Assembly: GCA_041660165.1 (NCBI GenBank)
Contig: JBAZWW010000003.1
Location: 68,352 to 132,351 of the forward strand
Length of the DNA: 64,000 nucleotides
Reading direction: 5' to 3'
DNA from: Patescibacteria group bacterium
GTDB lineage: Bacteria; Patescibacteriota; Patescibacteriia; UBA9934
Of the stretch, positions 9,201-64,000 are shown piece by piece. The translations under genes and the position numbers were made by a program. The notes under the pieces were generated by a model, which saw only the letters and a list, made by a program, of their open reading frames with translations, was not told the DNA's origin and did no database searches. Positions within the stretch are counted from its first letter, which is position 1. Each line of letters starts with the position of its first letter.

Positions 9201-11333
9201 TCTGCGGCCGGTTCAAATCTGACCGTTGATTCCGGAACAACAGGATCGGTTTTCCTGGGAACAGGCATAGCAGCAAAGACGATTACTATCGGAAATGGAG
9301 CGGATGACACGTTCTCGCTTAACTCCTCGGCTCTTGTTGTCTCAACGGCTGGAGCATTGACGGGTGTGGCTTCGCTTGACACCGTCGCAACATCAGCAAC
9401 CGCCTTTACCTTCGCCGGTGCCGGAGCTATTTCTTCAACAACATCATCTGCCATGACGATCGATTCCGGTTCAACGGGTGACGTGAACCTTGGTACTGGC
9501 GGTACGGCAAAAACGGTGAATGTAGGTAACGTAACGGGAGGTACGACATTGAACTTGAAATCAGGGACAGGCGGTATTTTGATGACGGTTGACAGCACTG
9601 CGTCAAGCGGCCAGGTACGTATTGGCAACAGCGCAACCGCCACGCCGGATTTATTAGTACTCGATAACGGAACGGCAGACCCAACCGGAGTGAATGGTGG
9701 GATGTATTACTCGACGGCCACAAACAAGTTCCGTTGTTATGAAAATGGCGCGTGGGCAAATTGCATAGGCGGTGGAACGAGCTCGACATCAAAATTCGTT
9801 GTGAAGGGTGCAGATGAAAATGTTCCAACAGGGAACACGCTCCAAACTGATGATGCACTGACGTTTGCGGTGGGAGCAAGCGAAACATGGGTGTTCCAAT
9901 TCAATCTCATGGTTGATAACTTGAGTAGCACGGCACCTGATTGGCAAGCAGCAATTTTGGGCGCATCGGGTTGGACCTGTAACTTCATCATGCACGGCGA
10001 GGAACCAGGCAGCTCTGCCTTCCCACAGTCAGCGGGAACCGATTGTGACAACGTGCCTACCGCGGTAGCAGACGGCACAATTGCTTCCAACGGTGGAATT
10101 CCATTTGAGGTAGTGTTGCAGGGAAGTATTACAACAACGAGCAGTGGATCAGTTACGCTGGAATGGGCTCCAAACACCAGCGGAAGCCTAACGGTGAAAG
10201 CGGGAAGCTTTGTTATCGCGCAGAAAGTTGGCGGTGCTGACTTGGCTGAAGTGTATTACACGAGGGATTCTGGAATGAGACCCGGAGATGTGGTGAGCAT
10301 TGATGGATCTATAGCGTCAGGGGTTAAGAAATCAACCGTTGCGCGTGATCCTAAGGTGATTGGCATTATTTCAACAAAACCGGGGTTGATCCTTGGCGAC
10401 GCAGAAGTGAACACGGAAGATTTCCCGGTTTTTGTAGCCCTGTCCGGAAGAGTGCCGGTGAGGGTAGTTACAGAAAATGGTTCGATTGGAGTTGGCGATT
10501 ACCTCACACCCGCTTCAGAACCGGGCACGGCCATGAAATCCGATGGGACAGGCCCTGTTATTGGACAGGCCATGTCTGCGTATGACGGCGAGGGGATTGG
10601 CACGGTTCTTGCCTTCGTTAAGAGTTTTGACTTGGGAGATGAGAGGCTGGTGCTTCTAGGAGACATCTCGCCAAAGCCGAAGGCCGACGGATCAGACAAT
10701 GGTCTTTCCACGTTCGTTGCCATGCTTCAGGCTGAGACGGCGCATGACCCTGTGATAATCATTGGCGAGAAGATTGCAGGCGGAAAGGACTTCCTTACAG
10801 ACTTTGTCTCCGCTCGCGTTACAGCAATCCGCGGATACTTTGATGAAGTGTTCGCAAAGAAAGTGCACACGGAACAGCTTTGTGTGAAGAAGGCGGATGG
10901 TACGGAGGCGTGTTTTGACGGAGACCAATTGCAACAGGCAATCAATGGGGAAGGGCCTCTAGCGAATTTCTCGGCGCCATCGAATAGCCCGGCACCTGCT
11001 CCGGCACCGGAGACCTTGACGTCGATGACCGATGTGATTGCGCCGACAGAAACAGCAACGCCGGAAATCATAGCCCTTCCTGCTGACGTGTCTTCTGACA
11101 CGGTACCAAATGAAGCAACGACAGATACTTCGGCTCCTGTAGTGGAGACGGTTCCAATTGTGGACGCCCCGGTTTCCGCCGAGGAACCGGTGAGCGAGCC
11201 TGTTGTCATTGAAGCGCCTGCGGGTGTTCCTGACATTGTGCCAGCGCCCTTGGACGTAGCCCCTGTGAGTGAGCCGGCACCAGCGCCAGAATCTGCACCA
11301 GAATCGGCTCCTGCTCCTGACCCAGCTCCTTAA
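3243..11333 (+). CDS. giant (2696 aa) secreted Thr/Gly-rich repetitive cell-surface protein
   Basis: N-terminal signal/TM; five copies of a module [21 protein letters not shown]...TITG.A.GADGR..R..NASSS...ANRIITGTG; three copies of a YYN...[15 protein letters not shown] module; a near-identical roughly 330-bp internal duplication (about 4200-4450 and 8210-8460); a globular C-terminal domain; an APAPAP Pro-rich tail. Confidence 0.8.
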
Positions 11334-26367: not shown

Positions 26368-26428
26368 CGTCCCACTCTGAGCGAGAGCGAAGAGTCCGAC
26401 CCTCACGTCTGAAAGTCGGATCCTTCGC

Positions 26429-27043
26429 ATGGCTCAGGATGGGAATAGGATCGACATGGCCACTTTTTCGACCATCCTGTTGCTTCTCTTCGCCATCTTT
26501 CTTACTTTTTTTGTTTTGCCGTTTGTATTTCTCTTGGCCACAAGCATCATCTGGAATGGCGCGCCGTTTGTGCCGGTGCCATCGAGGGCCGTGCCAGGGA
26601 TCGTTGAGGCCCTTTTTGCGACGAAGGGGTTTAGCATCGCCAAACCCGTACATGCGCAAAGGGCCGTGGTGTATGATATGGGCTGTGGCGATGGGCGAGT
26701 GTTATGCTCGGCTGTGCGCTCGAATCCCAATGTTCGAGCAGTAGGCATCGAGTGTGCCTTATTGCCATATGCGCTTGCCAGGATTCGAGCAAGAAATCTG
26801 CCGATTGAGATACGTCGAAAAGACTTTTTTCAGGAGGATCTTTCGCAGGCAACTCACGTGGTCACCTATCTCTTCCCTGAACTAATGGCTCGCGTCGAGC
26901 AGAAACTTGCCGTCGAGCTGAAGCCAGGGACTCGAGTAGTCGCCATCGACTTTCCTTTGCCAACCTGGAAACCGATTGAGGTTATAAAGCAAAAAGTGCC
27001 GGGACTGAAGAGGGGAACGAATCTGTATATTTATCAACTATGA
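26429..27043 (+). CDS. membrane-anchored SAM-dependent methyltransferase (alternative start 26456)
   Basis: N-terminal TM helix followed by VYDMGCGDGRV motif I; the stop overlaps the next gene. Confidence 0.5.
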   Translation: MAQDGNRIDMATFSTILLLLFAIFLTFFVLPFVFLLATSIIWNGAPFVPVPSRAVPGIVEALFATKGFSIAKPVHAQRAVVYDMGCGDGRVLCSAVRSNPNVRAVGIECALLPYALARIRARNLPIEIRRKDFFQEDLSQATHVVTYLFPELMARVEQKLAVELKPGTRVVAIDFPLPTWKPIEVIKQKVPGLKRGTNLYIYQL

Positions 27044-36675: not shown

Positions 36676-36822
36676 GTGTCCGGTCCTACTCCGACGACAG
36701 GAGGAGTAGCCTTGGATGCCATTGGATAAGGATTCTGACAAATTACAGTAAGCCAATTCTATCCCTCGCTTTGCTCGGGATGGGATCCATCGGCTCGGGG
36801 TGGGAAGTTAGAAATACACGCT

Positions 36823-38031
36823 ATGCCGAAGTTCAAAGACTTTCTCATTCTTCTCTTGGCCGTTTTGCCAACTTATCTTTTGCGTTTTCATCTTGGGCCG
36901 GTGCCAACTACTGTGCTCGAAATATATATATTGTTGATTATTGGGTACTGGTTTATTTTTGAGCAGGGTTATCGGTTAGATTTCTTGCGAACAATGGGCG
37001 CGTACCGGGTGCCATTCCTACTTCTCCTCGCTACTTCATGTTTTGCCGTGGCCGTGGCGCCGGATCCGATCTCGGCACTCGGCACCTGGAAGGCATTTTA
37101 TGTCGAGCCGATTTTGTTGTTTTTCGTTTTTCGTTCAACGTTCCTCGCGCGCGAGGATTGGACGCTCGCCCTTGGCGCTCTTGGCATCTCGGTGATTTCT
37201 ATTTCGATCTTTGCCGTTTTCCAACGAGTGACGGGCCTCGGCATTCCGGTGCCATGGGATATCGAGCTTCGAGCAACCTCGATCTTTGATTTCCCGAACG
37301 CCGTTGGCTTATTTGTCGGTCCGGCGGTTGCCGTGTTTGTCGTGCTCGCTGTAGACAAGGCTCGAGCACTCCGGGAACGAGTATTTTTCGGCATCTCAGC
37401 CATGTTCGGTGTCATCGCGATTGTTCTCTCGCAAACCGAGGCGCTATTCATTGCCTTGCCGGTAGCGTTTCTGTTCTCGCTTTTGCTGTCGAGCGCCCCG
37501 AAGAAGCTCAAGCTCGGCATCATTGGCGCGAGCATTTTCCTTGGCGTCATCGCCTTTGCGGGCAGTTCGACCGTTCGTGAGAAGCTGCTGCTTGAAGACC
37601 TTTCCGGTCAGGTTCGCCGTTCACAGTGGACGGAAACACTCGCCCTTCTAAAAGATCATCCCATTTTTGGCGCTGGCCTCCAGGGCTATCCCGCTGTTTT
37701 TGCTAAGTACCATGACCCGCGTCTGTACGAAATCTTCCAGTACCCGCATAACATTTTGCTGAATTTTTGGGTTGAGCTTGGCTTCCTTGGCGTGATCACG
37801 CTCGTTGTTTTCATTCTTTCAGTTCTTCAGGTGACATATATGCGCCGGACAGACATTTTTAGCCTCGTAGCCTTTGCCGGACTCGCCACCATGTGTATCC
37901 ACGGTCTGGTTGATGTGCCATTTTTCAAGAATGATCTGGCGGTACTGACGGTGTTCTTGTTGGCCCTGAGCTCGACCTCCTCTGGCTCCTCCTTGGAAAG
38001 GAGGAGGATCACTTATGACCCTGATCTATAA
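36823..38031 (+). CDS. O-antigen ligase/polymerase-like (Wzy_C) membrane protein
   Basis: Multi-TM with a central periplasmic loop; motifs SQTEALFIALP and FGAGLQGY; the C-terminal tail SSLERRR is encoded by the hairpin at 37987-38007. Confidence 0.65.
   Translation: MPKFKDFLILLLAVLPTYLLRFHLGPVPTTVLEIYILLIIGYWFIFEQGYRLDFLRTMGAYRVPFLLLLATSCFAVAVAPDPISALGTWKAFYVEPILLFFVFRSTFLAREDWTLALGALGISVISISIFAVFQRVTGLGIPVPWDIELRATSIFDFPNAVGLFVGPAVAVFVVLAVDKARALRERVFFGISAMFGVIAIVLSQTEALFIALPVAFLFSLLLSSAPKKLKLGIIGASIFLGVIAFAGSSTVREKLLLEDLSGQVRRSQWTETLALLKDHPIFGAGLQGYPAVFAKYHDPRLYEIFQYPHNILLNFWVELGFLGVITLVVFILSVLQVTYMRRTDIFSLVAFAGLATMCIHGLVDVPFFKNDLAVLTVFLLALSSTSSGSSLERRRITYDPDL
37987..38007. repeat. palindromic hairpin CTCCTCC-TTGGAAA-GGAGGAG (family A variant, left flank of DUF559 gene 1)
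   Basis: Perfect 7-bp stem; loop identical to the 63561-63577 copy upstream of the second DUF559 gene. Confidence 0.6.
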
Positions 38032-38410
38032 CCCATCATGGAGCATTGAACGGAGAAAGGAGCTTCGGATGAGAGCAACATTCGCTGAAATTGTGCTTTG
38101 GAATCTTTTGAGAAATAGGCAACTCATGAATGTGAAGTTTCGTCGGCAGTATGGTGTAGACGGGTACATTGTCGATTTTTATGCTGCCCAATTGAAATTT
38201 GCAATTGAGCTTGATGGGGCCGTTCACGATACTGAAGAGGCAAGAAGATACGACCAAATTAGAGACGAGCACTTGAGGGGAATCGGCATCGAAATACTAC
38301 GATTACGAAACGAGGAGGTTGTACTGGGGCAGGAGTCAGCTCTCAAGCGAATCACTGAAGCGATGCGCTCTCGTCAGGCGCGTTACCCCTCCTTACCAAG
38401 GAGGGGATAG
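38015..38410 (+). CDS. DUF559 (Vsr/restriction-endonuclease-like) domain protein
   Basis: Aligns from Met1 with the second DUF559 protein at 63608 (M-T-x-I-x-N-x-x-W-S-(I/L)-E-R-R-(K/R)-(E/D)-L-R, FRRQYG, (I/L)-(I/V/T)-D-F-Y, ELDG); the C-terminal tail RYPSLPRRG is encoded by the hairpin at 38386-38406. Confidence 0.7.
   Translation: MTLIYNPSWSIERRKELRMRATFAEIVLWNLLRNRQLMNVKFRRQYGVDGYIVDFYAAQLKFAIELDGAVHDTEEARRYDQIRDEHLRGIGIEILRLRNEEVVLGQESALKRITEAMRSRQARYPSLPRRG
38386..38406. repeat. palindromic hairpin CCCCTCC-TTACCAA-GGAGGGG (family A variant, right flank of DUF559 gene 1)
   Basis: Perfect 7-bp stem; loop in inverted orientation relative to the left-flank copy. Confidence 0.6.
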
Positions 38411-38433
38411 GGGAGGTATAATCACCTCACACT

Positions 38434-40320
38434 ATGCTCCCTCTTCTCAAACGCGCCTTTTCAGGTTTTCTTTTGCTGGTCACGCTCCTTCTTGGCGTCC
38501 CTTTTACGGCTTTTGCCTCGAGTATTCCTTATTCAGCTCTACGCATAACCACCACCGGCGGGGGGAATATCACTTTGGCGCCGGGGGAGGTGAAGAATAT
38601 TGCCGTTTCTTTTCAAAACAAGGGTTCGCAGACGTGGAAAAATGATGGCAACGGCTACATTTCGCTTTATACCTACGGCCCAAAGTACCGGGCGAGTGTT
38701 TTTGACCCAGGTACCTGGCTCACGCCCTCGCAGGTGAAGCGGATGGGGGAGGAAGGCGTGAAGCCCGGCGCCACGGGCACATTTTTGTTCAGCTTGAAAG
38801 CGCCAAAGACCCTTGGCACATACAAAGAAACTTTCGCCCTGGCGTCTGAGAATATCAATTGGGTTACGGGAGGTGACTTCACTTTGAATATCACCGTGCA
38901 AGCGTCGAGTACTGCCAATGCGCCAGCTGTAGACCCCCGCCCGGACGATCCGGTCGGACGGGCTTCCTCACGTCAGGGTCTGGTTCCCGTTTCCACCGTC
39001 GCTCCCGATGCCTCTATTGGCTACTCAGCCAGTCTGGTCACCCAAACCGCTTCCAAAATGAAGGTCCTGGCTAAGAAAACAATCTCATTTTCGGCCGTTA
39101 TTCAGAACACGGGAACAAAGACATGGAAGAACATTGGGCTCTCGTCTTCAGCCATGAACATTGCTTCTGGGTCGAGTGATTTTAGGAACAGCACATGGTC
39201 TGGCAATCAGGTTGCCCTCCTCTCGCAAACAGTGAAGCCTGGCGCTACGGCCACGGTTCAGTTTTTCTTCACCTCGCCCAGCGTCAACGGAACACATACC
39301 GCGAAGTTTCAGATTACTGCAGACGGCATCAGTATTCCTGACAGCTTCGTGACCATTCCCGTTGAAGTAACCGGCGGATCGGCTGAAGCACTCGACGCCC
39401 CATTAGAAAGCGGGGTTTCCAACCCCTCCTCCGTGCCGGCCGCACTGATAACTGAACCAACTATCCGCGTGGGCGTGTTGATTGTGGACGAGGAGACAAA
39501 AGACGAGGCGGTCATCACCTCATTTGAAAGCGATTTTGATTTAATTGATACAGATGGCACGATCCTTGGTTCTTATCCAAGAGGGAAAGAGATCCGGACG
39601 GCATGGGATGGAGCGAATTATCTCTATAACGACGGTGCACACAAAAAGTCCTCGAAACCGCTCCGTTTCGTTCCAAAGACGCCAAACGCAGTCATGACCA
39701 TTACAAATTTTGATCGTCGGCTCACTCGCGGAACCTCGTTCGCAAACAACACTTTTAGAAACGTACTCGAACTCCGCTACAACACGCCGAATAATCGCAC
39801 TTGGGTTATAAATGAACTCCCGCTCGAATATTATTTACGAGGATTGGCTGAAACGTCTGATTCCTCGCCCGTTGAATTTCAGAAAGCGTTGTTAACCGCG
39901 GCCAGGACATACGCTTTTTATCACTGGACGCACAGCACTAAGCACAGAGCCGAAGGATTCCACGTAGACGCTTACCAAGACCAGGTGTACTGGGGCTATG
40001 ACCAGGAGGCCAGGACTCCGCGTATTACCGGAGGCGTGCAGGCCACGCGCGGTCAGATTGTCACGTACAACGGTGATACCGCCGTCACCTCATTCTTTTC
40101 TCGCTCGGATGGCAGAACTCGCAACTGGTCAGAAGTTTGGGGCGGAAACGTTCCGTATGCCAAATCCGTCCCCGTGCCGTGTGACGTTGGCAAGACTTTG
40201 TGGGGCCACGGCGTAGGCATGTCCGCTTCCGGCGCTCTCTGCATGGCCAAAGACGGTCAGGATTGGCAATCCATTCTCAAATATTTCTACACCGGCGTTG
40301 ATATTTCACAACGCTGGTAA
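38434..40320 (+). CDS. SpoIID/LytB-domain cell-wall protein with N-terminal Ig-like repeats
   Basis: Signal peptide; two TWKN-containing Ig-like repeats; C-terminal SpoIID/LytB-like region (NELPLEYYLRG...YWGYDQE...LWGHGVGMS). Confidence 0.7.
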   Translation: MLPLLKRAFSGFLLLVTLLLGVPFTAFASSIPYSALRITTTGGGNITLAPGEVKNIAVSFQNKGSQTWKNDGNGYISLYTYGPKYRASVFDPGTWLTPSQVKRMGEEGVKPGATGTFLFSLKAPKTLGTYKETFALASENINWVTGGDFTLNITVQASSTANAPAVDPRPDDPVGRASSRQGLVPVSTVAPDASIGYSASLVTQTASKMKVLAKKTISFSAVIQNTGTKTWKNIGLSSSAMNIASGSSDFRNSTWSGNQVALLSQTVKPGATATVQFFFTSPSVNGTHTAKFQITADGISIPDSFVTIPVEVTGGSAEALDAPLESGVSNPSSVPAALITEPTIRVGVLIVDEETKDEAVITSFESDFDLIDTDGTILGSYPRGKEIRTAWDGANYLYNDGAHKKSSKPLRFVPKTPNAVMTITNFDRRLTRGTSFANNTFRNVLELRYNTPNNRTWVINELPLEYYLRGLAETSDSSPVEFQKALLTAARTYAFYHWTHSTKHRAEGFHVDAYQDQVYWGYDQEARTPRITGGVQATRGQIVTYNGDTAVTSFFSRSDGRTRNWSEVWGGNVPYAKSVPVPCDVGKTLWGHGVGMSASGALCMAKDGQDWQSILKYFYTGVDISQRW

Positions 40321-45669: not shown

Positions 45670-46553
45670 AAAAAACTACGCCAAAGAAGATTGTCATCAT
45701 TGGGGGAGGAACTGGCACGGCCACCGTCCTCAAAGGACTGCGCCAGTATCCGCTTGAGCTTTCAGCCGTGGTTTCAATGGCTGATGACGGCGGTTCGACG
45801 GGAATCCTTCGGCGCGAGCTTGGCATTTTACCGGTTGGGGATATTCGCCAATGCCTGCTCGCGCTTTCAGACGCCGAGGATTCCGTGAAGGAACTATTCG
45901 GTTATCGCTTCGCCGAGGGGAGTCTCTCAGGACACAGCGCGGGCAATCTTCTCCTCGCCGCGCTCGTGAAATCTACGGGGGATTTCGAGGAAGCATTGGC
46001 CGTTGCCTCGAGAATGCTCGACATAAAGGGCGAAGTCATTCCCGTAACGCTCGATTTGACCACGCTCGGCGTTATTCATGGGAGTGATCGAGTGAAAGTG
46101 ATGGGCGAGCATGTGATTGATGACGGACTCGTGCTCAACCAACCGCGAGAATTCTTCCTTGAGCCCCGCGCGCAGATCAGCAGTCGAGCTCGAACCGCCA
46201 TCCTCGACGCCGATGTGATCGTGATCGGCCCCGGCTCGCTCGCCACCTCGCTCATACCAGCACTCATTGTAGAGGGAGTGCGCAAGGCGATTGGCGAGTC
46301 TAAGGCGAAGATCATCTATAACGTAAACCTCGCCCCAACGCCGGGGCAGACGGAGGGGTTCTCGGTAGCCGATTACGTGAAAGAGATCGAGTCATACTTG
46401 CCCCGCAAGATAGATTTTGTGACGAGCGGGGACGCGCTCAGGGATCCCTCGAAAGTAGAGAAAAAGGCTGGCGATCTCCTTGTCAGAAGCAGTGTTCGGC
46501 ATAATCCGGAGGCGCTTGGCCGGGTCATTATGGAATATATTGAGGCGCTATGA
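45666..46553 (+). CDS. YvcK/CofD-like (UPF0052, gluconeogenesis-factor family) protein
   Basis: KIVIIGGGTG...MADDGGSTG signature. Confidence 0.8.
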   Translation: MKKTTPKKIVIIGGGTGTATVLKGLRQYPLELSAVVSMADDGGSTGILRRELGILPVGDIRQCLLALSDAEDSVKELFGYRFAEGSLSGHSAGNLLLAALVKSTGDFEEALAVASRMLDIKGEVIPVTLDLTTLGVIHGSDRVKVMGEHVIDDGLVLNQPREFFLEPRAQISSRARTAILDADVIVIGPGSLATSLIPALIVEGVRKAIGESKAKIIYNVNLAPTPGQTEGFSVADYVKEIESYLPRKIDFVTSGDALRDPSKVEKKAGDLLVRSSVRHNPEALGRVIMEYIEAL

Positions 46554-47698
46554 AGATTTTTATTGATTTTGACCACACGCTAACCCGGGGCCGGGAGTTT
46601 GGGGATGCCATTTTGGGCGAACTGGGCGGGGAGTCAGCGGAAATTTTGCGCACCGCGCTTCGGGATTTTAGGCAAACGCATGATTTTACGTTGGAAGCCG
46701 TTTCTCAGCTCTTTGAACAGTTCGGCTTTCCGCCTGAGCGAACGATCAGTATGTATGAAGCGTATGCCAAGCGGATGGAGGAGTTTTTGGCGCCAGATGC
46801 CCATGAATTTCTGTCCGCTTTGAAGGCATTGGGCCACGAGCTGATACTCCTCACGCGTTCTCCTGACGTGGAAACATGGCAACGGCCAAAGGTGCTGGCG
46901 TCAGGGCTGAGTGAATATTTTACTGGCATTGAGATTACGAGCGGAGCAAAAGTGGACGTGATAGAGATGCTCGGCCACCAAGAGCCGTTTATATTTATTG
47001 ATGATCTCCCAAAGGAAACGGAAGAAATGCAAGCACGTTTTCCGGTGGCGCTTTGTATTACGCATGAAAAAGGCGCCCCGCTCATGGAGCATCTTTTCAC
47101 TATTGCCGGTTTTGCTAATCGTGACGAGCTAAAAACGCTTCCGTTGCCGATTAATACCGCGATCAACATCGGAAATCTTTCACTCGAGGACGGCGAACAG
47201 CTGGCCGTAACGTTTGGCCTCGACAAAAAAGCAGTCGACGCTTTCAAAAAGCGTTCGTGTGATGAAACGGATGAAGAGCTCATGCGTTTTACGAGTGATC
47301 ACGAGCGGATTTGCCTTGGTTCGTATGAAACTTGGTATGCCAAGGAGCGCTACCCGTTTGGCCTCATGAGCAAGTCCGGCGAACTGGCCGGCATTGCCTG
47401 GTTTGGCCCAAAGGCGTTTCCCTCGATTGAAAAAGCGGGGTTTCAAACCCCGCCCATGACCGCGAACGCCGAGTGGCATACCTTTGCTGTCCGCATGTAT
47501 AACCCGTATCGCGGAAAACGGCTGGCTTTCCCCTTTGCTTCCTTTGTTTTTAAGGCTTACAATACCTTTCTTCCTCCGCATCCGCTTTGGCTTGATACAA
47601 GTCCGGAAAACGCTGGCGCCATTCGGTTATACTCAAAGCTAGGATTCATCGAGCATGGACATCGAGAGGATGGCCGAGTAGTCATGATCCGCCCGTAA
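46550..47698 (+). CDS. HAD-like hydrolase fused to a GNAT acetyltransferase
   Basis: N-terminal DxD motif FIDFDHTL; C-terminal GNAT-like region; contains in-frame palindrome B at 47435-47453. Confidence 0.55.
   Translation: MKIFIDFDHTLTRGREFGDAILGELGGESAEILRTALRDFRQTHDFTLEAVSQLFEQFGFPPERTISMYEAYAKRMEEFLAPDAHEFLSALKALGHELILLTRSPDVETWQRPKVLASGLSEYFTGIEITSGAKVDVIEMLGHQEPFIFIDDLPKETEEMQARFPVALCITHEKGAPLMEHLFTIAGFANRDELKTLPLPINTAINIGNLSLEDGEQLAVTFGLDKKAVDAFKKRSCDETDEELMRFTSDHERICLGSYETWYAKERYPFGLMSKSGELAGIAWFGPKAFPSIEKAGFQTPPMTANAEWHTFAVRMYNPYRGKRLAFPFASFVFKAYNTFLPPHPLWLDTSPENAGAIRLYSKLGFIEHGHREDGRVVMIRP
47435..47453. repeat. palindromic hairpin GCGGGGTT-tca-AACCCCGC (family B, copy 1, in-frame in the HAD-GNAT gene)
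   Basis: Perfect 8-bp stem; encodes KAGFQTPP. Confidence 0.6.
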
Positions 47699-47700
47699 CT

Positions 47701-48981
47701 ATGCCTCGCGTTAAACTGACCGAATTTCGGGCGAAGAAGCTCATCCTCGGCAACACCTACGCCGGTGTTTCTTTTTGTGGTGTGGTGCGTTCTCCCTCTT
47801 TCCAAGAGGGCGTCAGTACGGGTGGGCGTTCCCCCTCTTTCCAAGAGGGTGTCAGGACGGATGGGCGCTCCCCCTCTTTCCAAGAGGGGGCTACGGGGGA
47901 GTCGGTGGTGCGTTGGGTGGTCAAAGTCGATCAAGGTATCAAAAAGCGCTTCAAGCAAGGCCTCGTCAAAGTGAATATCTCGGCGGACGAGATTTTGAGC
48001 GCTGTCGAGCCTTGGAAGGCAAAGGGCTTCTCGCAATTCATTGCCGAGCCGTTTGTCGAGCACTCGGCGAACGAGGAACAGTATCTTTCGCTTGAGCGCG
48101 TGCGTGAGGGGGTTCGCATTTTGCATACCGCCGAGGGCGGAGTTGATATTGAGGCGCATCCGGAAGCTGTCCGATCATATGTCGTCGAAAATGCGGGCGA
48201 GATTTCATTGATCGCTAAAGAGACGAAGATTCCGCAGGCATTCCTTGAACAGTTAATTTCAACTTTTAACGATAAGATGTTTGCATTTCTTGAGATCAAT
48301 CCGCTTGTGATCAAGGGTGATCGAGTCTATTTGCTCGACGCTGCCGTGCTCGTGGACAGCGCAGGAATCTTCTTTGTGCACGGCGCGTGGACGGCGAGTG
48401 ATCTTGTTCTGCCCACCGCCAAGCATCCGGCTGAAGCGCGGGTCGAGGAATTAGCGAAAACCACTCCCGCCTCGCTCAAATTGTCCGTGCTGAATCCTGA
48501 CGGAGCATTGTTTTTCTTGTTGTCTGGCGGTGGGGGATCAATCGTGATCGCAGATACCGTCATGAACAAAAGCGGGGTTTCAAACCCCGCCCACGGCGCG
48601 GGCCAACTGATCGGCAACTACGGCGAGTACAGCGGAGGGCCCACGCGCGAAGAGACGTTTTTGTACACTCGCGAGGTACTCGGTTTGTTGCTCGGATCGA
48701 GCGCGCCGAAGAAGGCGCTCATAATTGCCGGGGGAGTGGCAAACTTTACGGATGTGAAGCGGACGTTTGCAGGCATCATTGACGCGTTGACCGAGCGCTC
48801 AGCCGAACTCCGTAAGCAGGGCGTTAAGGTGTTTGTGCGCCGGGGCGGACCGAATGAACAGGCGGGACTGGCCATGATGCGTGAGTTCCTGACCGCCGAG
48901 GGATTGCTCGGTGCCGTTTATGGATCAGAGGCGGTGATGACTAAGGCGGTAGAAGACGCCATAGCTTTTGTAAAAGTATGA
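47701..48981 (+). CDS. ATP-grasp subunit resembling ATP-citrate lyase beta / succinyl-CoA synthetase beta (AclB-like)
   Basis: ATP-grasp plus CoA-ligase fold; near the N-terminus carries three tandem 13-aa in-frame repeats (SPSFQEGxxTxGR) from element A, and a family B hairpin at 48572-48590. Confidence 0.65.
   Translation: MPRVKLTEFRAKKLILGNTYAGVSFCGVVRSPSFQEGVSTGGRSPSFQEGVRTDGRSPSFQEGATGESVVRWVVKVDQGIKKRFKQGLVKVNISADEILSAVEPWKAKGFSQFIAEPFVEHSANEEQYLSLERVREGVRILHTAEGGVDIEAHPEAVRSYVVENAGEISLIAKETKIPQAFLEQLISTFNDKMFAFLEINPLVIKGDRVYLLDAAVLVDSAGIFFVHGAWTASDLVLPTAKHPAEARVEELAKTTPASLKLSVLNPDGALFFLLSGGGGSIVIADTVMNKSGVSNPAHGAGQLIGNYGEYSGGPTREETFLYTREVLGLLLGSSAPKKALIIAGGVANFTDVKRTFAGIIDALTERSAELRKQGVKVFVRRGGPNEQAGLAMMREFLTAEGLLGAVYGSEAVMTKAVEDAIAFVKV
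47784..47903. repeat. three tandem 39-bp copies of palindromic element A (GGTGCGTT-CCCCCTCTTTCCAAGAGGGGG-CTACGGGGGAGTC)
   Basis: Direct reading of the sequence; in-frame within the AclB-like CDS. Confidence 0.85.
48572..48590. repeat. palindromic hairpin GCGGGGTT-tca-AACCCCGC (family B, copy 2, in-frame in the AclB-like gene)
   Basis: Identical 19-mer, read in a different frame (KSGVSNPAHG). Confidence 0.6.
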
Positions 48982-50798: not shown

Positions 50799-50874
50799 TA
50801 CTTTCTCCATCCCGAGCCATGCGAGGGATCCGACTTTCCCTGCGAGAAGTGGGGGGGGGGCGGATAAGGGCGCA

Positions 50875-51942
50875 TTAGCGCGAGATCTCGAGAATCCCCG
50901 TTGGCACCCCGAGCGTCTCAAGCATTTGCTTCGCCTTCTCCTCGCTGGCCGGCATCATTTGGCGTTTTTGGAGGTAGAGCGGTTCGAATTTGAGCGTCAG
51001 TTTGTCAGCCTCGACGGTTAAGCGGACAGCCAGCCCGCTTTTTGTAGCTTCCGAGAAATCTTGATCGAACAAGAAATTGCCGAGCGAATAGACGATCGGG
51101 ACATTTTTGTATGTTTCGACGGTTTCAATGACATGCGGATGTCCGCCAATGACGGCGTCTGCGCCAGCGTCAACAAATTGATGCCCCGCAAAGATCTGTG
51201 AGCTGGACGGATTGTGCTGATACTCCACGCCCCAGTGAGGCATAACGATCACGAAATTGCCGGCGGATTTTTCAAGTTTGATGGCCTCGACAATGCCAGC
51301 GGTTGTTTCGTTAAAAGCGTGGTAGCCAATAAAGGCAAAAGTTATTCCGTTCACGGTTTTGTGGGCTACAAACTTTCCGCCTTCCCACGCATCGCCAAAC
51401 GGAGTCATGCCGGCGTTCGTGATTGTTGTCCTGGTGAGCTCCGCGGTTGCCCGGCCATAATCATCAGCATGATTGTTCGACAATGAAAGCAAGTCGAATC
51501 CTTGGGTGGCGAGCATTGAAACATTGCCGGGCGTGGTGTCAAAGTTCATGACGTTTGTTCCTTCGATGTTTTCTTTTTCGCGTACTGTTCCCTCAAAATT
51601 ACCGATAAGCAGGTCACTATTTGAAAGCAAATCTCCAACCTTCGCAAACGGATATTCGGTGCCGTAAAGTTTTATGTATTGCTCCACGTTTCTTGCGAGC
51701 ATAATGTCGCCCACGAATTCAAGAGTCGTGCTCGAGTCGTTCGGTGAGGGCACGATATCCGCCGTAGGGGTCGATCCATGTATCGACCCCGCAGTGACGA
51801 TGCGATCTCCCGCCATGGTCAGATGCGCCCTTCGAGAGATTTCGATGGACGAATTTGCTTTAGAAAACGGCGATACCACAAGAAATCCGATGAGAACGGT
51901 GAGTCCAAGCGCGGTTAACAGTATGGCGAGTTTTGGGGTCAT
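50875..51942 (-). CDS. CapA/PGA_cap-family metallophosphatase-like protein
   Basis: N-terminal TM; motifs FVGDIM, NFEG, NNHADDYG, GGHPHV; carries in-frame element C at 51767-51790. Confidence 0.7.
   Translation of the reverse strand: MTPKLAILLTALGLTVLIGFLVVSPFSKANSSIEISRRAHLTMAGDRIVTAGSIHGSTPTADIVPSPNDSSTTLEFVGDIMLARNVEQYIKLYGTEYPFAKVGDLLSNSDLLIGNFEGTVREKENIEGTNVMNFDTTPGNVSMLATQGFDLLSLSNNHADDYGRATAELTRTTITNAGMTPFGDAWEGGKFVAHKTVNGITFAFIGYHAFNETTAGIVEAIKLEKSAGNFVIVMPHWGVEYQHNPSSSQIFAGHQFVDAGADAVIGGHPHVIETVETYKNVPIVYSLGNFLFDQDFSEATKSGLAVRLTVEADKLTLKFEPLYLQKRQMMPASEEKAKQMLETLGVPTGILEISR
51767..51790. repeat. palindromic hairpin GGGGTCGAT-ccatgt-ATCGACCCC (family C, copy 1)
   Basis: Perfect 9-bp stem; encodes GSIHGSTPTA on the minus strand. 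Confidence 0.7.
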
Positions 51943-53357: not shown

Positions 53358-53410
53358 ATTGTTGATGTAGGGGCCGATTTATATATCGGCCCAGATTATG
53401 ATTATTTCAT

Positions 53411-55261
53411 TTACGTAACGAACGGTAACGTGATCCCCTTAGCCTTGGCCAACCAATAGCCAAGCGCCCCCAAACTGGTAGTGAGTAACCCGCCTCCCAC
53501 CCACGGAATTTGTTTCGTGGGCGGGGGAGCGATGAGATTGTGATTCCTCTCCCCGCTAGGGGAGGAAGTAGGTAGGGGGGTTGTCATATCTGCCGTAGGG
53601 GTCGATCCATGTATCGACCCCGTAAGCACGCTCATCCCCTTCGTCTCCGTTATGGCGAGCGTCCACGCTCCGCTCTTCACTCGCGCCACGCCCGTCACTG
53701 CAATACGGTCGCCGAAGGCCAGGTCAGCAAAGTTGATGGCCACATGCGGAGCAGATGCTATGGCAAGGGTGTCGCCATTTTCGAGTTCCACCGTTACTCC
53801 GCCTTTGGCCATGTCCGTGACCGAGCCTTCCAGACTGAAGTATCCGCCTTGGACAGCTTCGTCGAGTGAGTTAAGCGAGTCTGGCGCCAGCGCGTCCTGG
53901 CCGGTTGTTTTAATGTCCAACCGTTTGCTTATCTTGAGACGCACATAGCCGTCTTTTTGTTGAACCACGCCGGTAACCTGCACGTGTGCCATGTATTTCA
54001 GCTTTGGCCAGTCGGCTTTGTTGAAATACACTTCAAGTCCATTTAGATACATCAGCTGTTTGCCGAATACTCCCGGCAGGCCAACCACTACGCCATCAAC
54101 GGTCACAATTTCTCCATCCGGGACATCGCCGAGTTCTGAGACGTCGAGTACCGTCAGGGTGGTTCCTCTCCCCGTGAGGGGAGAGGCTAGGTGAGGGGTA
54201 GCGGTGGCCGGGGGCAGGGGGGAGGCTACGCTGTCCGCCACCGTTGTTGCGAGCTCCAGCCGAACAGGGCTTGGGGCGGGGGCATCAGGGTTAGTTCCTT
54301 GAGCTTGGTCTTGAACGGCCGGATCAGGGTTGATAACGGCAGGAGTGTTGATTGTCGTCTCATATGTTGTATTCGTTGTGTCGTAGGGGTCGATCCATGT
54401 ATCGACCCTCGTATTAATGGCGAGCGGAGTGGGATCAGATTCAATCCACGTTCCGTCGGGTTGTTTAGCGAGTGATTTTCCTTTTTTCGGCGCCGTTTTG
54501 CCGGTGTACGATATCGCGTCAATCGTTGCTCCGGTTCCATCGAACAGGAAGATTGAGTCGCCATCGTTATTGAGTTTGCCCTTCGGGTTTTGTAGGACAA
54601 AGAAGGCGTGCGCCGGCAGAATCTGATCGGGCAACGGAGTTTTACTTGTCGTCGCATCTTTAACCGTCCACCCGCCGAGAGAGATTTCGTCTTCGGTTGT
54701 GTTGAGAAGCTCAATCCATTCCACACCATCGGCCGGATCAGATACGAATTCATTGATGAGGACGGAGCCAGTGGGATACGGGATTGGCCCGGGTGCCACG
54801 GGCGGTACCACGGGCGCGGTTGATGGCGCGGGCGTTAGGGTGGTCAATGGGGGTGCCGTAGGGGTCGATCCATGTATCGACCCCGCCTCGGTAGGCGTGA
54901 TGATCGGCGCGGGCGCCTCAATCGGCAATGGCTCGATGACCGTGATTGGCGCAACGGGTTCTGGTTCAGGTTCCGGTGCAACTGGTTCCGGTGCCGGCAA
55001 TGGGGCCGTCTGCACCGGACACAGCAGGCACGGATCCCCGGCGTCATCCCCTCCTTGTGAGGGAGGCTCGCCCGTAGGTTGCGAAGTTACGCCCGAGGAG
55101 GGCAGAGGGATGGAGGGGGCCAAGGGGGTGGCTACGTCTCCACCGGTCCCAGCGCTTTCGACGGTTTCGACGATCGCGGTTTCGGATGCGTCTTCTGCTC
55201 TCGCGGGTAGAGGAGACACAAAGGGCAAGAGGGTGAGGATTCCCAAGAGTCCATAGTACAT
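53411..55261 (-). CDS. secreted lamin-tail-domain (LTD) protein, Pro/Thr-rich, with a C-terminal membrane anchor
   Basis: LTD pattern VLINEFVSDPADGVEWIELLNTTEDEISLGGWTVKD...LNNDGDSIFLFD; signal peptide; C-terminal TM; contains three family C and two family D hairpin elements in-frame. Confidence 0.65.
   Translation of the reverse strand: MYYGLLGILTLLPFVSPLPARAEDASETAIVETVESAGTGGDVATPLAPSIPLPSSGVTSQPTGEPPSQGGDDAGDPCLLCPVQTAPLPAPEPVAPEPEPEPVAPITVIEPLPIEAPAPIITPTEAGSIHGSTPTAPPLTTLTPAPSTAPVVPPVAPGPIPYPTGSVLINEFVSDPADGVEWIELLNTTEDEISLGGWTVKDATTSKTPLPDQILPAHAFFVLQNPKGKLNNDGDSIFLFDGTGATIDAISYTGKTAPKKGKSLAKQPDGTWIESDPTPLAINTRVDTWIDPYDTTNTTYETTINTPAVINPDPAVQDQAQGTNPDAPAPSPVRLELATTVADSVASPLPPATATPHLASPLTGRGTTLTVLDVSELGDVPDGEIVTVDGVVVGLPGVFGKQLMYLNGLEVYFNKADWPKLKYMAHVQVTGVVQQKDGYVRLKISKRLDIKTTGQDALAPDSLNSLDEAVQGGYFSLEGSVTDMAKGGVTVELENGDTLAIASAPHVAINFADLAFGDRIAVTGVARVKSGAWTLAITETKGMSVLTGSIHGSTPTADMTTPLPTSSPSGERNHNLIAPPPTKQIPWVGGGLLTTSLGALGYWLAKAKGITLPFVT
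53544..53566. repeat. palindromic hairpin TTCCTCTCCCC-gct-AGGGGAGGAA (family D, copy 1)
   Basis: Near-perfect stem; encodes PSGERN in the LTD protein. Confidence 0.55.
53598..53621. repeat. family C hairpin, copy 2
   Basis: GGGGTCGATCCATGTATCGACCCC, identical to copy 1. Confidence 0.7.
54165..54186. repeat. palindromic hairpin CCTCTCCCC-gtg-AGGGGAGAGG (family D, copy 2)
   Basis: Perfect 9-bp stem; encodes ASPLTGRG in the LTD protein. Confidence 0.6.
54386..54408. repeat. family C hairpin, copy 3
   Basis: GGGGTCGATCCATGTATCGACCC. Confidence 0.7.
54861..54884. repeat. family C hairpin, copy 4
   Basis: GGGGTCGATCCATGTATCGACCCC. Confidence 0.7.
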
Positions 55262-60781: not shown

Positions 60782-61729
60782 ATGACCAAGAAACGCCTTG
60801 CCATTTTAACTGGCGGGACAAGCGCTGAGCGTGACATTGCTCTGGCGTCCGCAAAAACAGTCGCTGATCTGCTTGCCGAACGGTATGACATAACCAAGTT
60901 CGATTTTCCAAGTGAGATTGACGCATTCCTAGCGCAACGAGATACCTTCGATGTCGCAATCCCCATCTTCCACGGTAAGGGCGGGGAAGACGGAACCGTG
61001 CAGGGCTTCTTGAAAACGCTCGGCGTGCCATTTCTATTCTCGGACGTCACCGCACATGCCATTGGCATGGACAAGACCTTGGCGAAAACCGTTGTGTCTA
61101 CCGTCGGTCTTCATACGCCGAGCTCGATCGTTCTGACTCGTGTTGAGTTCCTTCAGGGTGGCTCCCCCTCTTTCCAAGAGGGGGCCAGGGGGAGTCTCGG
61201 GATGGTCAGGGTGGTCAAGCCTCTGGATTCCGGCAGTACCCTCGGCATCACCATCGTCCGCTCTTCCAACGACCTACAGTCAGCCCTCGAAAACGCTTTT
61301 AAGCATTCCGATAAAGTGCTCATTGAGGATTTCATTGGAGGCGACGAATTCACCGTGGCTGTGATCGACGAACATGGCGAATCAATCGCCTTGCCCGTGA
61401 TTCAAATCGTCTCGCCGAACGGGATATACGATCACTCCGCCAAGTACGGCCCACAGCCAGCCGAGAAACTTTGCCCGGCGCCGATTAGCGAAGATCTCAC
61501 TTTACGCCTTCAAGAATCCGCCGTCACCGCGCACAAAGCCATCGGCGCCAGGCATTTGTCGCGGACAGATTTCATCGTTGACCGAGAGGGGACAATTTGG
61601 TTCCTTGAAATCAACACCATTCCCGGCCAATCCGTCTTATTTCCAAAAGCCGTAAAAGCATCAGGCCGTGATTTTGCAGAGATATTTGCCGACTGGATTG
61701 AGTCTGTCTACCTTGCCAAATCCTCCTGA
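60782..61729 (+). CDS. ddl: D-alanine--D-alanine ligase
   Basis: Ddl N-terminus RLAILTGGTSAERDIALASAK, ATP-grasp motifs, EINTIPG; carries a 39-bp in-frame insertion of element A (encoding GGSPSFQEGARGS). Confidence 0.9.
   Translation: MTKKRLAILTGGTSAERDIALASAKTVADLLAERYDITKFDFPSEIDAFLAQRDTFDVAIPIFHGKGGEDGTVQGFLKTLGVPFLFSDVTAHAIGMDKTLAKTVVSTVGLHTPSSIVLTRVEFLQGGSPSFQEGARGSLGMVRVVKPLDSGSTLGITIVRSSNDLQSALENAFKHSDKVLIEDFIGGDEFTVAVIDEHGESIALPVIQIVSPNGIYDHSAKYGPQPAEKLCPAPISEDLTLRLQESAVTAHKAIGARHLSRTDFIVDREGTIWFLEINTIPGQSVLFPKAVKASGRDFAEIFADWIESVYLAKSS
61157..61196. repeat. palindromic element A inserted in-frame in ddl
   Basis: GGTGGCTCCCCCTCTTTCCAAGAGGGGGCCAGGGGGAGTC. Confidence 0.85.
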
Positions 61730-63535: not shown

Positions 63536-63545
63536 TGCGACGCGC

Positions 63546-63604
63546 GACTCCCCCGTAGCCCCCTCTTGGAAAGAGGGGGAGCGCACACCCTGACAGCACG
63601 CACC
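63546..63604. repeat. palindromic element A (inverted orientation, left flank of DUF559 gene 2)
   Basis: GACTCCCCCGTAGCCCCCTCTTGGAAAGAGGGGGAGCGCACACC..GCACGCACC is the reverse complement of element A. Confidence 0.8.
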
Positions 63605-63607
63605 ACT

Positions 63608-64000
63608 ATGACGGAAATATTCAACCAAAAATGGAGCCTGGAGAGGCGCAGAGATTTACGAAATGGAATGACCAAACCGGAGATCTTGCTGTGGTTAGCT
63701 ATCAAGGCAGATCAACTTGGCGTTCGTTTTAGAAGGCAGTACGGAATTGGTCGGTACATAACCGATTTTTATGTCCCGCGATTACGACTCGTGGTTGAAT
63801 TGGACGGCTCGCAGCATTACACCCCGGAAGGTAGGCGATATGATGAGATTCGAACCAAATCTTTCGAAAGCATCGGCATCCAGGTCATCCGTTTCGCAAA
63901 CGACGAAGTTTGCAGAAATCTGCACGGCGTTCTTCAGCGTCTCCGCATTGCGATAGCGGACCGTCAGAATGGTCAGGTGCGTTCCCCCTCTTTCCAAGAG
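63608..64000 (+). CDS. DUF559 (Vsr/restriction-endonuclease-like) domain protein, 3'-truncated by the window end
   Basis: ATG at 63608; MTEIFNQKWSLERRRDLR...FRRQYGIGRYITDFY...VVELDG, homologous to the protein at 38015; the ORF continues into element A (…QNGQVRSPSFQE). Confidence 0.6.
   Translation, partial: MTEIFNQKWSLERRRDLRNGMTKPEILLWLAIKADQLGVRFRRQYGIGRYITDFYVPRLRLVVELDGSQHYTPEGRRYDEIRTKSFESIGIQVIRFANDEVCRNLHGVLQRLRIAIADRQNGQVRSPSFQE
63976..64000. repeat. palindromic element A (forward orientation, right flank of DUF559 gene 2; truncated by the window end)
   Basis: GGTGCGTTCCCCCTCTTTCCAAGAG. Confidence 0.8.

Follow-up and report, generated by a model that had tools for sequence, protein, structure and literature searches.

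Short DUF559 genes between inverted triplex-motif repeats in a Patescibacteria genome: candidate partner nucleases of BoxC/PIT/TM-type elements

A 64,000-nucleotide stretch of the genome of a Patescibacteria group bacterium (GenBank assembly GCA_041660165.1, contig JBAZWW010000003.1, positions 68,352 to 132,351; referred to here as the window) carries two short genes of the DUF559 family (Pfam PF04480), and each lies between inverted copies of a GC-rich repeat that we call a triplex motif (TM). Further TMs occur in the window inside other genes, and the features are listed in Table 1. We refer to a DUF559 gene together with its flanking TMs as a cassette.

Table 1. DUF559 genes and TMs in the window (L003 is a sister contig that continues the sequence; aa, amino acids; ORF, open reading frame; CDS, coding sequence)
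Feature	Position	Strand	Remarks
Left TM of gene 2	37974..38006	-	variant CTCCTCCTT / AAGGAGGAG / GAGGAGGTC; within 3' end of Wzy_C (O-antigen ligase) ORF
DUF559 gene 2	38015..38410	+	131 aa, tail ...ARYPSLPRRG; PF04480 E=4.7e-29
Right TM of gene 2	38386..38418	+	CCCCTCCTT ACC AAGGAGGGG ATA GGGGAGGT
Three tandem 39-nt TM units in aclB-like (ATP-citrate-lyase beta-like) CDS	47787..47903	+	in frame, N-terminal region
TM of third sequence type	54165..54198	+	CCTCTCCCC GTGA GGGGAGAGG CTA GGTGAGGGG; near E. coli TM_ECO pattern
Solo TM in ddl	61164..61196	+	in frame; codes for GSPSFQEGARGS in loop ahead of VVKP strand
Left TM of gene 1	63546..63579	-	reverse orientation; extended inverted repeat 63545-63590
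DUF559 (predicted Vsr-like PD-(D/E)xK) gene 1	63608..64000	+	codons 1-131 of 149; whole ORF is L003 16949-17398
Right TM of gene 1, start	63976..64000	+	5' flank GGTGCGTT conserved; truncated by window end; whole copy L003 17325-17357

The first-pass annotation of the window placed a DUF559 ORF at 63608, and a Pfam match of E=2.6e-29 bears this out. Gene 1 starts there with an ATG and extends past the end of the window; extension onto L003 supplies the gene's 3' end and the whole right-hand element, giving a product of 149 aa with the C-terminus QNGQVRSPSFQEGATGESQGGPRGDVGLSG. In plus-strand order the left TM consists of a mirror tract GACTCCCCC (63546-63554), a linker GTAG, a pyrimidine arm CCCCCTCTT (63559-63567), a loop (63568-63570), and a purine arm AAGAGGGGG (63571-63579). 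The right TM presents its pyrimidine arm (63984-63992), a loop (63993-63995), and the first 5 nt of its purine arm before the window ends, and it codes for the protein tail ...RSPSFQEGATGES. Segment 63546-63581 (GACTCCCCCGTAGCCCCCTCTTGGAAAGAGGGGGAG) is the reverse complement of GGTGCGTTCCCCCTCTTTCCAAGAGGGGGCTACGGGGGAGTC, which starts at 63976 and is finished in L003, and into which gene 1 reads, so the earlier proposal that the gene runs into a forward copy of the element encoding its own tail holds both in the window and in L003. The flanking copies are 96% complementary within the window and share a 35-nt identical core once L003 is added, with weaker similarity beyond the core, over ~50 nt. 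A reverse copy upstream of the gene had also been proposed and is present, but the distance from its hairpin core to the ATG is 28 nt and not the 4 bp first given; a weak trace of similarity (ACGCACC, 63598-63604) reaches 3 nt short of the ATG. Contigs L001 and L002, from two independent assemblies of the organism, both end exactly at the left TM of gene 1, as is typical of a repeat collapsing in assembly.

Gene 2 codes for a protein with 45% identity to that of gene 1, and the window's two copies are best read as old paralogues. Its stop codon TAG (38408-38410) falls within the linker of its right TM. The first-pass annotation recognized the same architecture at this gene, and the layout is indeed the same, but the flanks are diverged variants and not the identical element.

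Each TM, 33-50 nt long, is built from five segments. A homopyrimidine arm is followed by a loop of 3 nt and by a homopurine arm complementary to the first; after a linker of 3-4 nt comes the third tract, a purine-rich mirror of the purine arm, with G answering to G and A to A or T. There are six complete three-tract motifs in the window against none in 50 shuffles, all with 9-bp stems, loops and linkers of 3-4 nt, and 8-9 mirrored positions. We examined the mirror relationship in 162 DUF559-adjacent hairpins from 80 metagenome contigs—selected by a DUF559 peptide pattern alone, and not phylogenetically independent of one another—aligning the third tract on G positions only. A mirrored third tract is present in 97 of the 162; its linker is exactly 3 nt in 68 of these 97, and of 240 purine-arm A positions 227 face an A or a T. 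The combination of G.G-C with A.A-T or T.A-T is the code of an antiparallel purine-motif triple helix, and because mirror repeats are not produced by any replication error, the pattern must be selected. Watson-Crick folding with DNA parameters (ViennaRNA) forms the hairpin and leaves the third tract unpaired. We rejected an alternative pairing of the third tract with the pyrimidine arm, which is coincidental for gene 1 (CTCCCCC) and fails for gene 2 and for locus L034, where the third tract is parallel-complementary, a mirror tract.

Motifs of this design have a history in Escherichia coli, where BoxC was described in the 1990s (Bergler 1992) and rediscovered by Hoyne and Maher as a potential intrastrand triplex (PIT) element (Hoyne et al. 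2000; Hoyne & Maher 2002). A later survey treated the motif as TM or TM_ECO, giving its pattern as a C-rich stem followed by a 3-6-nt loop, then a G-rich stem, a loop of 3 nt, and another G-rich stem, with 23 copies of TM_ECO in K-12, often as inverted doublets (Holder et al. 2015; PMC4666352). The same survey associates TMs with rearranged loci, reports that its authors never met mobility functions near them, and leaves their function unexplained; it does not mention ycjD, DUF559, or any endonuclease (PMC4666352). The TM_ECO pattern (CCCTCNCCC N3-6 GGGNGAGGG N3 GGGNGAGGG) is unmatched by the motifs flanking genes 1 and 2, and only the motif at 54165-54198 comes close. Since the flanking arms differ from TM_ECO, we assign the window's element, by its sequence, to the BoxC/PIT/TM intrastrand-triplex structural class and not to the E. 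coli sequence family. The GC-rich palindromic element first noted is therefore a real hairpin but more than a palindrome, having a mirrored third tract as well. Nor do the hairpins behave as mere rho-independent terminators, a possibility raised together with that first description and one that we reject because no T-run follows them, copies lie inside ORFs and upstream of genes, and the third tract is conserved. A search of 133 kb, including the window and 15 loci, against Rfam 15 at the gathering threshold returned tRNAs only, and at E<=10 nothing around the cassette fell below E=0.89.

The DUF559 proteins are predicted, from sequence and from modeling, to be Vsr-like PD-(D/E)xK nucleases. 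Both window proteins far exceed the PF04480 cut-off (101.7 and 100.9 bits versus 20.6), and each gives a full-length alignment to NF007294, the E. coli YcjD model (E~1e-16, below the equivalog cut-off). In a 40-sequence alignment D54, D67, G68, H71, and R96 do not vary and E65 and N99 hardly do; both window proteins have them all, and the conserved core comprises the D of xDF, E-x-D-G, H, and the R and N of the last strand. The family profile matches Protein Data Bank (PDB) entry 3HRL (E=1e-33) and the catalytic domain of I-Bth0305I (E=4.5e-6). An AlphaFold2 model has a predicted local distance difference test score of 90, with the TM-encoded tail disordered; Foldseek aligns it to 3HRL with a structural TM-score of 0.92 on the target and to 3R3P with probability 1.0, and it also matches the Vsr-like domains of PvuRts1I and AbaSI. 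The Vsr fold postulated in the first-pass annotation is thus recovered by modeling, with the D, E-x-D, H, R, and N residues kept. YcjD detects Vsr in profile comparison (PMC1189080). A PADLOC search for membership in a defense system gave weak domain-level matches only, and we noticed no methyltransferase gene beside the window's DUF559 genes, the ORFs having been only partly checked.

The association between the element and the gene extends well beyond the window. On the 80 contigs, related as some may be, 101 of 141 strict three-tract motifs have a DUF559 domain no more than 200 nt away; TM density is 1.67/kb near DUF559 and 0.08/kb elsewhere, a 21-fold enrichment (binomial P~1e-64). Perfect GC-rich hairpins occur within 250 nt upstream of 59 of 71 DUF559 genes and downstream of 44 of 66, and matching flanks were found at 38 of 64 DUF559 genes versus 5 of 385 control ORFs (90-250 aa, same contigs). 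Where a motif is present on both sides, the nearest TMs are inverted with respect to each other in 17 of 21 cases, in either polarity. Within the window, four of seven motif sites have a DUF559 CDS at a distance of 50 nt or less (binomial P=1.6e-6). The arrangement recurs in the cultured bacterium Deinococcus aetherius, where TMs abut both gene ends, on a Synechocystis plasmid, and in an Uhrbacteria metagenome-assembled genome (MAG), and also at L005, L019, and L028, loci retrieved solely through a 21-nt core of the motif. Inverted element, Vsr-fold nuclease gene, and second element, as first described for the window, are therefore found at both window genes and across the contigs, and the layout holds generally for the short DUF559 family. 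Tails such as PSLPRRG, PSPSGRGLG, PLKGGE, and PLPSGER are common at the C-termini of DUF559 homologues, and N-terminal extensions of a like kind occur; the tails are translated motifs.

Some of these loci have features of their own. At L010 (1240-2119) repeat units lie on both sides of the DUF559 gene and are not called by the TM finder, and tandem arrays follow downstream; at L019 (3300-3900) the upstream unit forms the 3' end of an lgt ORF. DUF559 genes also occur in defense-type operons, adjoining the BREX gene pglX on the Synechocystis plasmid (L118) and between DUF499 and DUF1156 genes on a Picosynechococcus plasmid (L119). The repeats flanking the latter have C/G in their arms and still keep the mirrored third tract.

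The motifs at the genes and those elsewhere on the same contig tend to be of one variant. Stems of solo TMs have a mean identity of 0.90 to DUF559-flanking stems on their own contig versus 0.65 to those on other contigs, and 13 of 29 are identical. Among orthologous cassettes, whose CDSs are 52-68% identical at the nucleotide level, the TMs of the closer orthologues (CDS 58-68%) are mostly 82-100% identical, and between L003 and L116 both flanks match at 33/33 positions with the CDS at 68%. The left TM of gene 2 is changed in L114 (22-24/32), with the three tracts altered together. In the most distant pair, with L117 (CDS 52%), TM identity falls to 24-26/33 because all three tracts of both flanks have changed together: CTCTT to CTCCTT, AAGAG to AAGGAG, and GGGGGAG to GGGGGAGG. 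These patterns argue that the TMs are under selection and better conserved than the gene they flank.

Solo copies inside genes carry the same variant as gene 1. The first-pass annotation described identical copies in frame in ddl and in the aclB-like gene, and we find that both carry an identical 21-nt core, that of gene 1, with an expectation of 0.00 in 100 shuffles. The aclB-like array has this exact core three times (within 47792-47890), and the third tract is intact in the third unit only (47870-47903). In Ddl the segment GGSPSFQEGAR... is found only in the window protein and in an 82%-identical orthologue; the ~297-aa orthologues are without it. Pfam domains span the insert in Ddl and flank the array on both sides in the aclB-like protein, and the solo copies are best explained as insertions into genes. 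Their suggested resemblance in behavior to Rickettsia palindromic elements is sustained, as the ddl insert is absent from the shorter orthologues. A 9-nt direct repeat TCAGGGTGG bounds the ddl insert, and we considered it as a target-site duplication and rejected it: the same repeat bounds the master copy and the Uhrbacteria copies, and so belongs to the element itself. The ddl loop before the VVKP strand (window 61100-61260) is a hot spot for insertions: unrelated inserts of 20-40 aa occupy this position in other Patescibacteria Ddl proteins (e.g., GSPRDPNRWVEQRNTVDVPKPCGSPSD).

The exact 21-nt core is present in many other MAGs, in both orientations, within ORFs of 300-1375 codons that are predicted only. 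The MAGs concerned (L004-L031), which do not include the source genome, are labeled Magasanikbacteria, Uhrbacteria, Saccharibacteria, Gammaproteobacteria, Saprospiraceae, Bacteroidaceae, Nitrospinota, Dehalococcoidia, and Clostridia. The core is often followed there by a conserved tail GGGGGAGTTGCCGAAG and more hairpins, which suggests that it may be part of a larger composite element.

The E. coli member of the family, ycjD, is also accompanied by triplex motifs. In K-12 a degenerate TM lies across the ycjD stop codon and a BoxC, CCCCTCGCCCCTCTGGGGAGAGGGTTAGGGTGAGGGG, lies ~170 nt downstream; the chance of any of the 23 BoxC copies lying so close to ycjD is 0.004. CCCCTCGCCCCTCTGGGGAGAGGGTTAGGGTGAGGGG is a dispersed repeat, found at a median of 19 places per genome among 5426 E. 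coli genomes, which fits BoxC. Between the stop codon and BoxC is a 45-nt duplicate of the ycjD 3' end (ETVLENI..LNR; L112 3290-3360, minus strand), which looks like the relic of an older cassette end. Of the 5426 genomes 3378 have the gene, as a single copy at one and the same locus, and in other E. coli the eef operon occupies its site (PMC12817139). In an evenly spaced sample, genomes with the ycjD locus have 14-33 other BoxC-like places (median 21) and those without it 3-21 (median 9), among them ST131-like genomes with 3-6 and O157:H7 with 15; the correlation is suggestive only, being confounded by phylogeny, and the sampled B2 genomes, at 3-6 copies, give a first hint that TMs may decay once the gene is lost. 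At this locus, between fabI and sapF, the ycjD and eef alleles diverge ~46 nt to the fabI side of BoxC (L112 ~3163 versus L122 ~1500), with no triplex motif at the junction in the eef allele. With the boundary lying off the TM and the eef allele lacking one, fabI-sapF does not provide a clean filled and empty pair.

We propose that the DUF559 protein is the cognate nuclease of the TM repeats, a partnership organized like that of REP repeats with RAYT genes, and we hold this proposal to be about an even proposition; it is the REP/RAYT-like organization that leads us to it. The data above show the anatomy of the motif, its association with DUF559, the inverted arrangement, the agreement of flanking with solo motifs, their covariation, and their conservation, and from these we infer binding, nicking, action in trans, and spreading of the repeats. 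A single-copy, largely vertically inherited DUF559 gene would be kept within an inverted pair of its own TM variant. When single-stranded, the first two arms of a TM would form a 9-bp hairpin, and the third tract would lie in its major groove through the G.G-C, A.A-T, and T.A-T triads known from the literature. The DUF559 product would recognize TMs, folded or as duplex, and nick there or close by, whether in cis or at the dispersed solo copies. Repair, recombination, or template switching provoked by the nick could then maintain and homogenize the TMs and occasionally copy them to new sites, including in-frame insertions in protein surface loops such as that of Ddl, and the same nicking could give rise to the rearrangements reported at TM loci.

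Several observations weigh against this proposal. The triplex has been demonstrated in vitro as DNA for the E. coli family only (Hoyne & Maher; Holder et al., PMC4666352), and the window variants are assigned to the class by sequence. Under the strict definition 31 of 73 DUF559 genes have no upstream TM, and the thresholds of the TM finder were chosen after the data had been seen. Some TMs have no DUF559 gene nearby, for example that at 54165-54198, which lies inside a minus-strand LTD-domain ORF (53411-55261). In four genomes the two TMs of gene 2, left and right, are consistently different, so flanks are not always copies of each other, and at L010 and L019 the DUF559 gene lies between direct, not inverted, copies of composite units of 85-100 nt. 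Coverage of the source organism amounts to ~68 kb, the window and ~4 kb of L003. Solo TMs persist in E. coli lineages lacking ycjD, at 15 places in O157:H7, and the E. coli correlation given above is confounded by phylogeny.

The first-pass annotation favored an autonomous mobile or homing cassette, in which the TMs would be terminal inverted repeats or the halves of a homing site and the solo TMs would be derivatives akin to miniature inverted-repeat transposable elements (MITEs); we think this unlikely. In its favor, inverted repeats of 35-50 nt form the flanks, the homing endonuclease I-Bth0305I is a homologue of the nuclease, and DUF559 genes occur in tandem in L033 and L107; orthologues of gene 2 have different neighborhoods (Wzy/SpoIID, HIT/epimerase, and HIT/NUDIX, including L113 and L115), the direct composite units at L010 and L019 are as Campbell-type integration at a TM would leave, and ycjD and the eef operon alternate at one E. 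coli locus (PMC12817139). Yet two near-identical cassettes are seen in no genome, and the window's own copies have only the 45% identity given above. Three related genomes share the locus of the gene 1 cassette, gene 2 retains its synteny in L114, and ycjD keeps to its one locus in all genomes that have it, where the boundary of its segment is not at a TM and the eef junction has none. We found no empty site for the cassettes, the two closest relatives identified through the upstream 189-aa protein both carrying that of gene 1, and no definable target-site duplication, TCAGGGTGG being part of the element. The family is almost absent from phages and mobilizable plasmids, with 2 of 50,697 phage records and 30 of 72,556 plasmids carrying it. 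A homing endonuclease gene is not indicated, as the genes lie between genes and the relatives examined are filled at the same site with no empty allele; nor, given the diverged copies, the single-copy ycjD, and the want of a target-site duplication, is a transposon with terminal inverted repeats and MITEs. The pattern fits a REP/RAYT-type relationship better than a transposon with MITE-like derivatives. The cassette looks single-copy, mostly syntenic, and not actively transposing. Some movement over longer times is indicated by the gene 2 neighborhoods, the direct flanks at L010 and L019, and the DUF559 genes wedged into defense operons on cyanobacterial plasmids.

Inheritance of this kind, vertical and in single copy, would also be expected of a structure-specific repair nuclease of the host, one that frees replication or transcription blocked at triplexes, with the TMs as its substrates, the flanking TMs as sensors or autoregulatory sites, and no part for the protein in spreading them. 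The fold is shared with the repair nickase Vsr, and the literature describes a block to DNA polymerase by PIT elements in vitro as well as instability of TM loci. We nonetheless regard this as rather improbable: it leaves unexplained why the flanking TMs are the variant of the genome's solo copies and co-vary on both flanks, and why 72% of contig TMs adjoin the gene, and E. coli lineages without ycjD tolerate their 3-21 TMs.

The closeness of the motifs to the gene, with a median of 32 nt between TM and domain start and of 6 nt between domain end and TM so that TMs abut both ends of the ORF, could mean instead that they act on the DUF559 gene in cis only, by insulation, by stabilizing mRNA ends, by hiding the ribosome-binding site in the purine arm, or through a long duplex between the 5' and 3' ends. 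The hairpins are stable, and the purine arm AAGGAGGAG stops 8 nt ahead of the gene 2 ATG. This explanation is very improbable in our estimation, because identical motifs are found far from DUF559 genes and inside other genes, no T-run follows the hairpins, and the spacing to the start codon varies (8, 18, 24, and 28 nt); we rejected hiding of the ribosome-binding site in particular, since the spacing is right for gene 2 but is not conserved in its orthologues or in gene 1. A conserved third tract would moreover be useless in an RNA hairpin, as RNA does not form purine-motif triplexes (PMC4666352). Finally, short genes do lie between two intergenic regions and some of the counted hairpins could be terminators, but we give next to no credence to the view that the association merely reflects GC-rich hairpins and terminators being common in the intergenic DNA on both sides of a short gene, which is excluded by the control ORFs, the 21-fold lower TM density elsewhere on the contigs, and the absence of motifs from shuffled sequence, and to which the lack of any Rfam family or terminator-like T-run is equally contrary.

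The window has other repeats as well. A hairpin repeat, CGTAGGGGTCGATCCATGTATCGACCCC, which is not of the triplex type, has five copies (51755-51791, 53358-53394, 53586-53622, 54374-54410, and 54849-54885), mostly within the minus-strand ORFs 50875-51942 and 53411-55261, and a small palindrome, AAAGCGGGGTTTCAAACCCCGCCC, has three (39407-39449, 47432-47474, and 48569-48611), lying within a plus-strand SpoIID-like ORF, ORF 46550-47698, and the aclB-like gene. A 32-nt repeat, GAAAGTCGGATCCTTCGCATGGCTCAGGATGG, occurs in both orientations (26411-26442, 50807-50838, and 36761-36783), and a 2696-aa ORF (3243-11333) has several internal repeat families of 57-300 nt. The genome seems riddled with several families of in-frame structured repeats.

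The link between TMs and DUF559 appears to be new, as judged from open-access papers and bioRxiv. BoxC/PIT/TM repeats have been known since the early 1990s with their function, partner, and spread unexplained, and DUF559 would be the first candidate for a partner enzyme; DUF559, in turn, has very many members and a solved structure but no assigned role, and the link, tight and phylogenetically broad, offers a concrete hypothesis to both sides. Extending the proposed partnership, we speculate, at somewhat less than even chances, that short DUF559/YcjD proteins are the missing partner enzymes of BoxC/PIT/TM repeats, a second, independently evolved REP/RAYT-like symbiosis, here of a domesticated nuclease with a structured DNA repeat, and the first protein family dedicated to an intramolecular DNA triplex in vivo. 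If so, nicking would explain how the repeats are maintained and copied, how they came to be inserted in frame into essential Patescibacteria genes, and why TMs are rearrangement hot spots. E. coli K-12, with one gene (ycjD) and 23 repeats, offers a test bed. Triplex motifs are able to reside within coding sequence, which bears on the tolerance of repeats in the ultra-small Patescibacteria genomes, and for annotation, odd C-terminal tails such as PSLPRRG, PSPSGRG, and SPSFQEG are translated repeats.

Among known systems, the window's repeats are closest to BoxC/PIT/TM_ECO, with which they share a pyrimidine stem, a short loop, a purine stem, a second loop of 3 nt, and a mirrored G-rich third tract, as well as dispersal in multiple copies that are often inverted doublets; the 54165 motif nearly fits the published pattern, and the repeat adjoining E. 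coli ycjD is itself a member. They differ in their arms (CCCCCTCTT and CCCCTCCTT versus CCCTCNCCC in E. coli), and whereas the E. coli motifs are reported to be strictly intergenic, those of the window also lie in frame in genes; the literature moreover reports no associated gene and explicitly no mobility function. Rickettsia palindromic elements are similar in being short structured repeats found in frame in coding genes and tolerated in surface loops. They are 100-150 bp long and specific to Rickettsia, and are not known to have either a triplex tract or a flanked nuclease gene.

As for the protein, E. coli YcjD and Neisseria NGO0050 (3HRL), both in PF04480, match over their full length with the same conserved residues and the same gene size, and there is no difference at the family level. 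I-Bth0305I (PDB 3R3P), a homing endonuclease of the Vsr-like 'EDxHD' type from an intron in a Bacillus phage, has a homologous catalytic domain. It is intron-encoded and has an extra DNA-binding region, whereas the DUF559 proteins here are a bare 120-aa domain encoded between genes on the chromosome. Vsr belongs to the same fold superfamily but is paired with Dcm and nicks at T:G mismatches, and the window proteins match the DUF559 model and not that of Vsr.

In organization the closest counterpart is the system of REP/REPIN repeats and RAYT (TnpA_REP) genes, reportedly described by Nunvar in 2010 and by Bertels & Rainey in 2011. In both systems inverted copies of a short structured repeat enclose a nuclease-type gene that is single-copy and inherited vertically, and in both the same repeat variant is dispersed as singlets and inverted doublets, each gene having its own variant. 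The enzyme here is a Vsr-like PD-(D/E)xK protein of the DUF559 family and not an HUH Y1 (IS200/IS605-like) transposase, so it is not a RAYT and the resemblance is one of organization only; the repeat is a three-tract triplex motif in place of a simple hairpin, and DUF559 would act on it as the proposed cognate nuclease.

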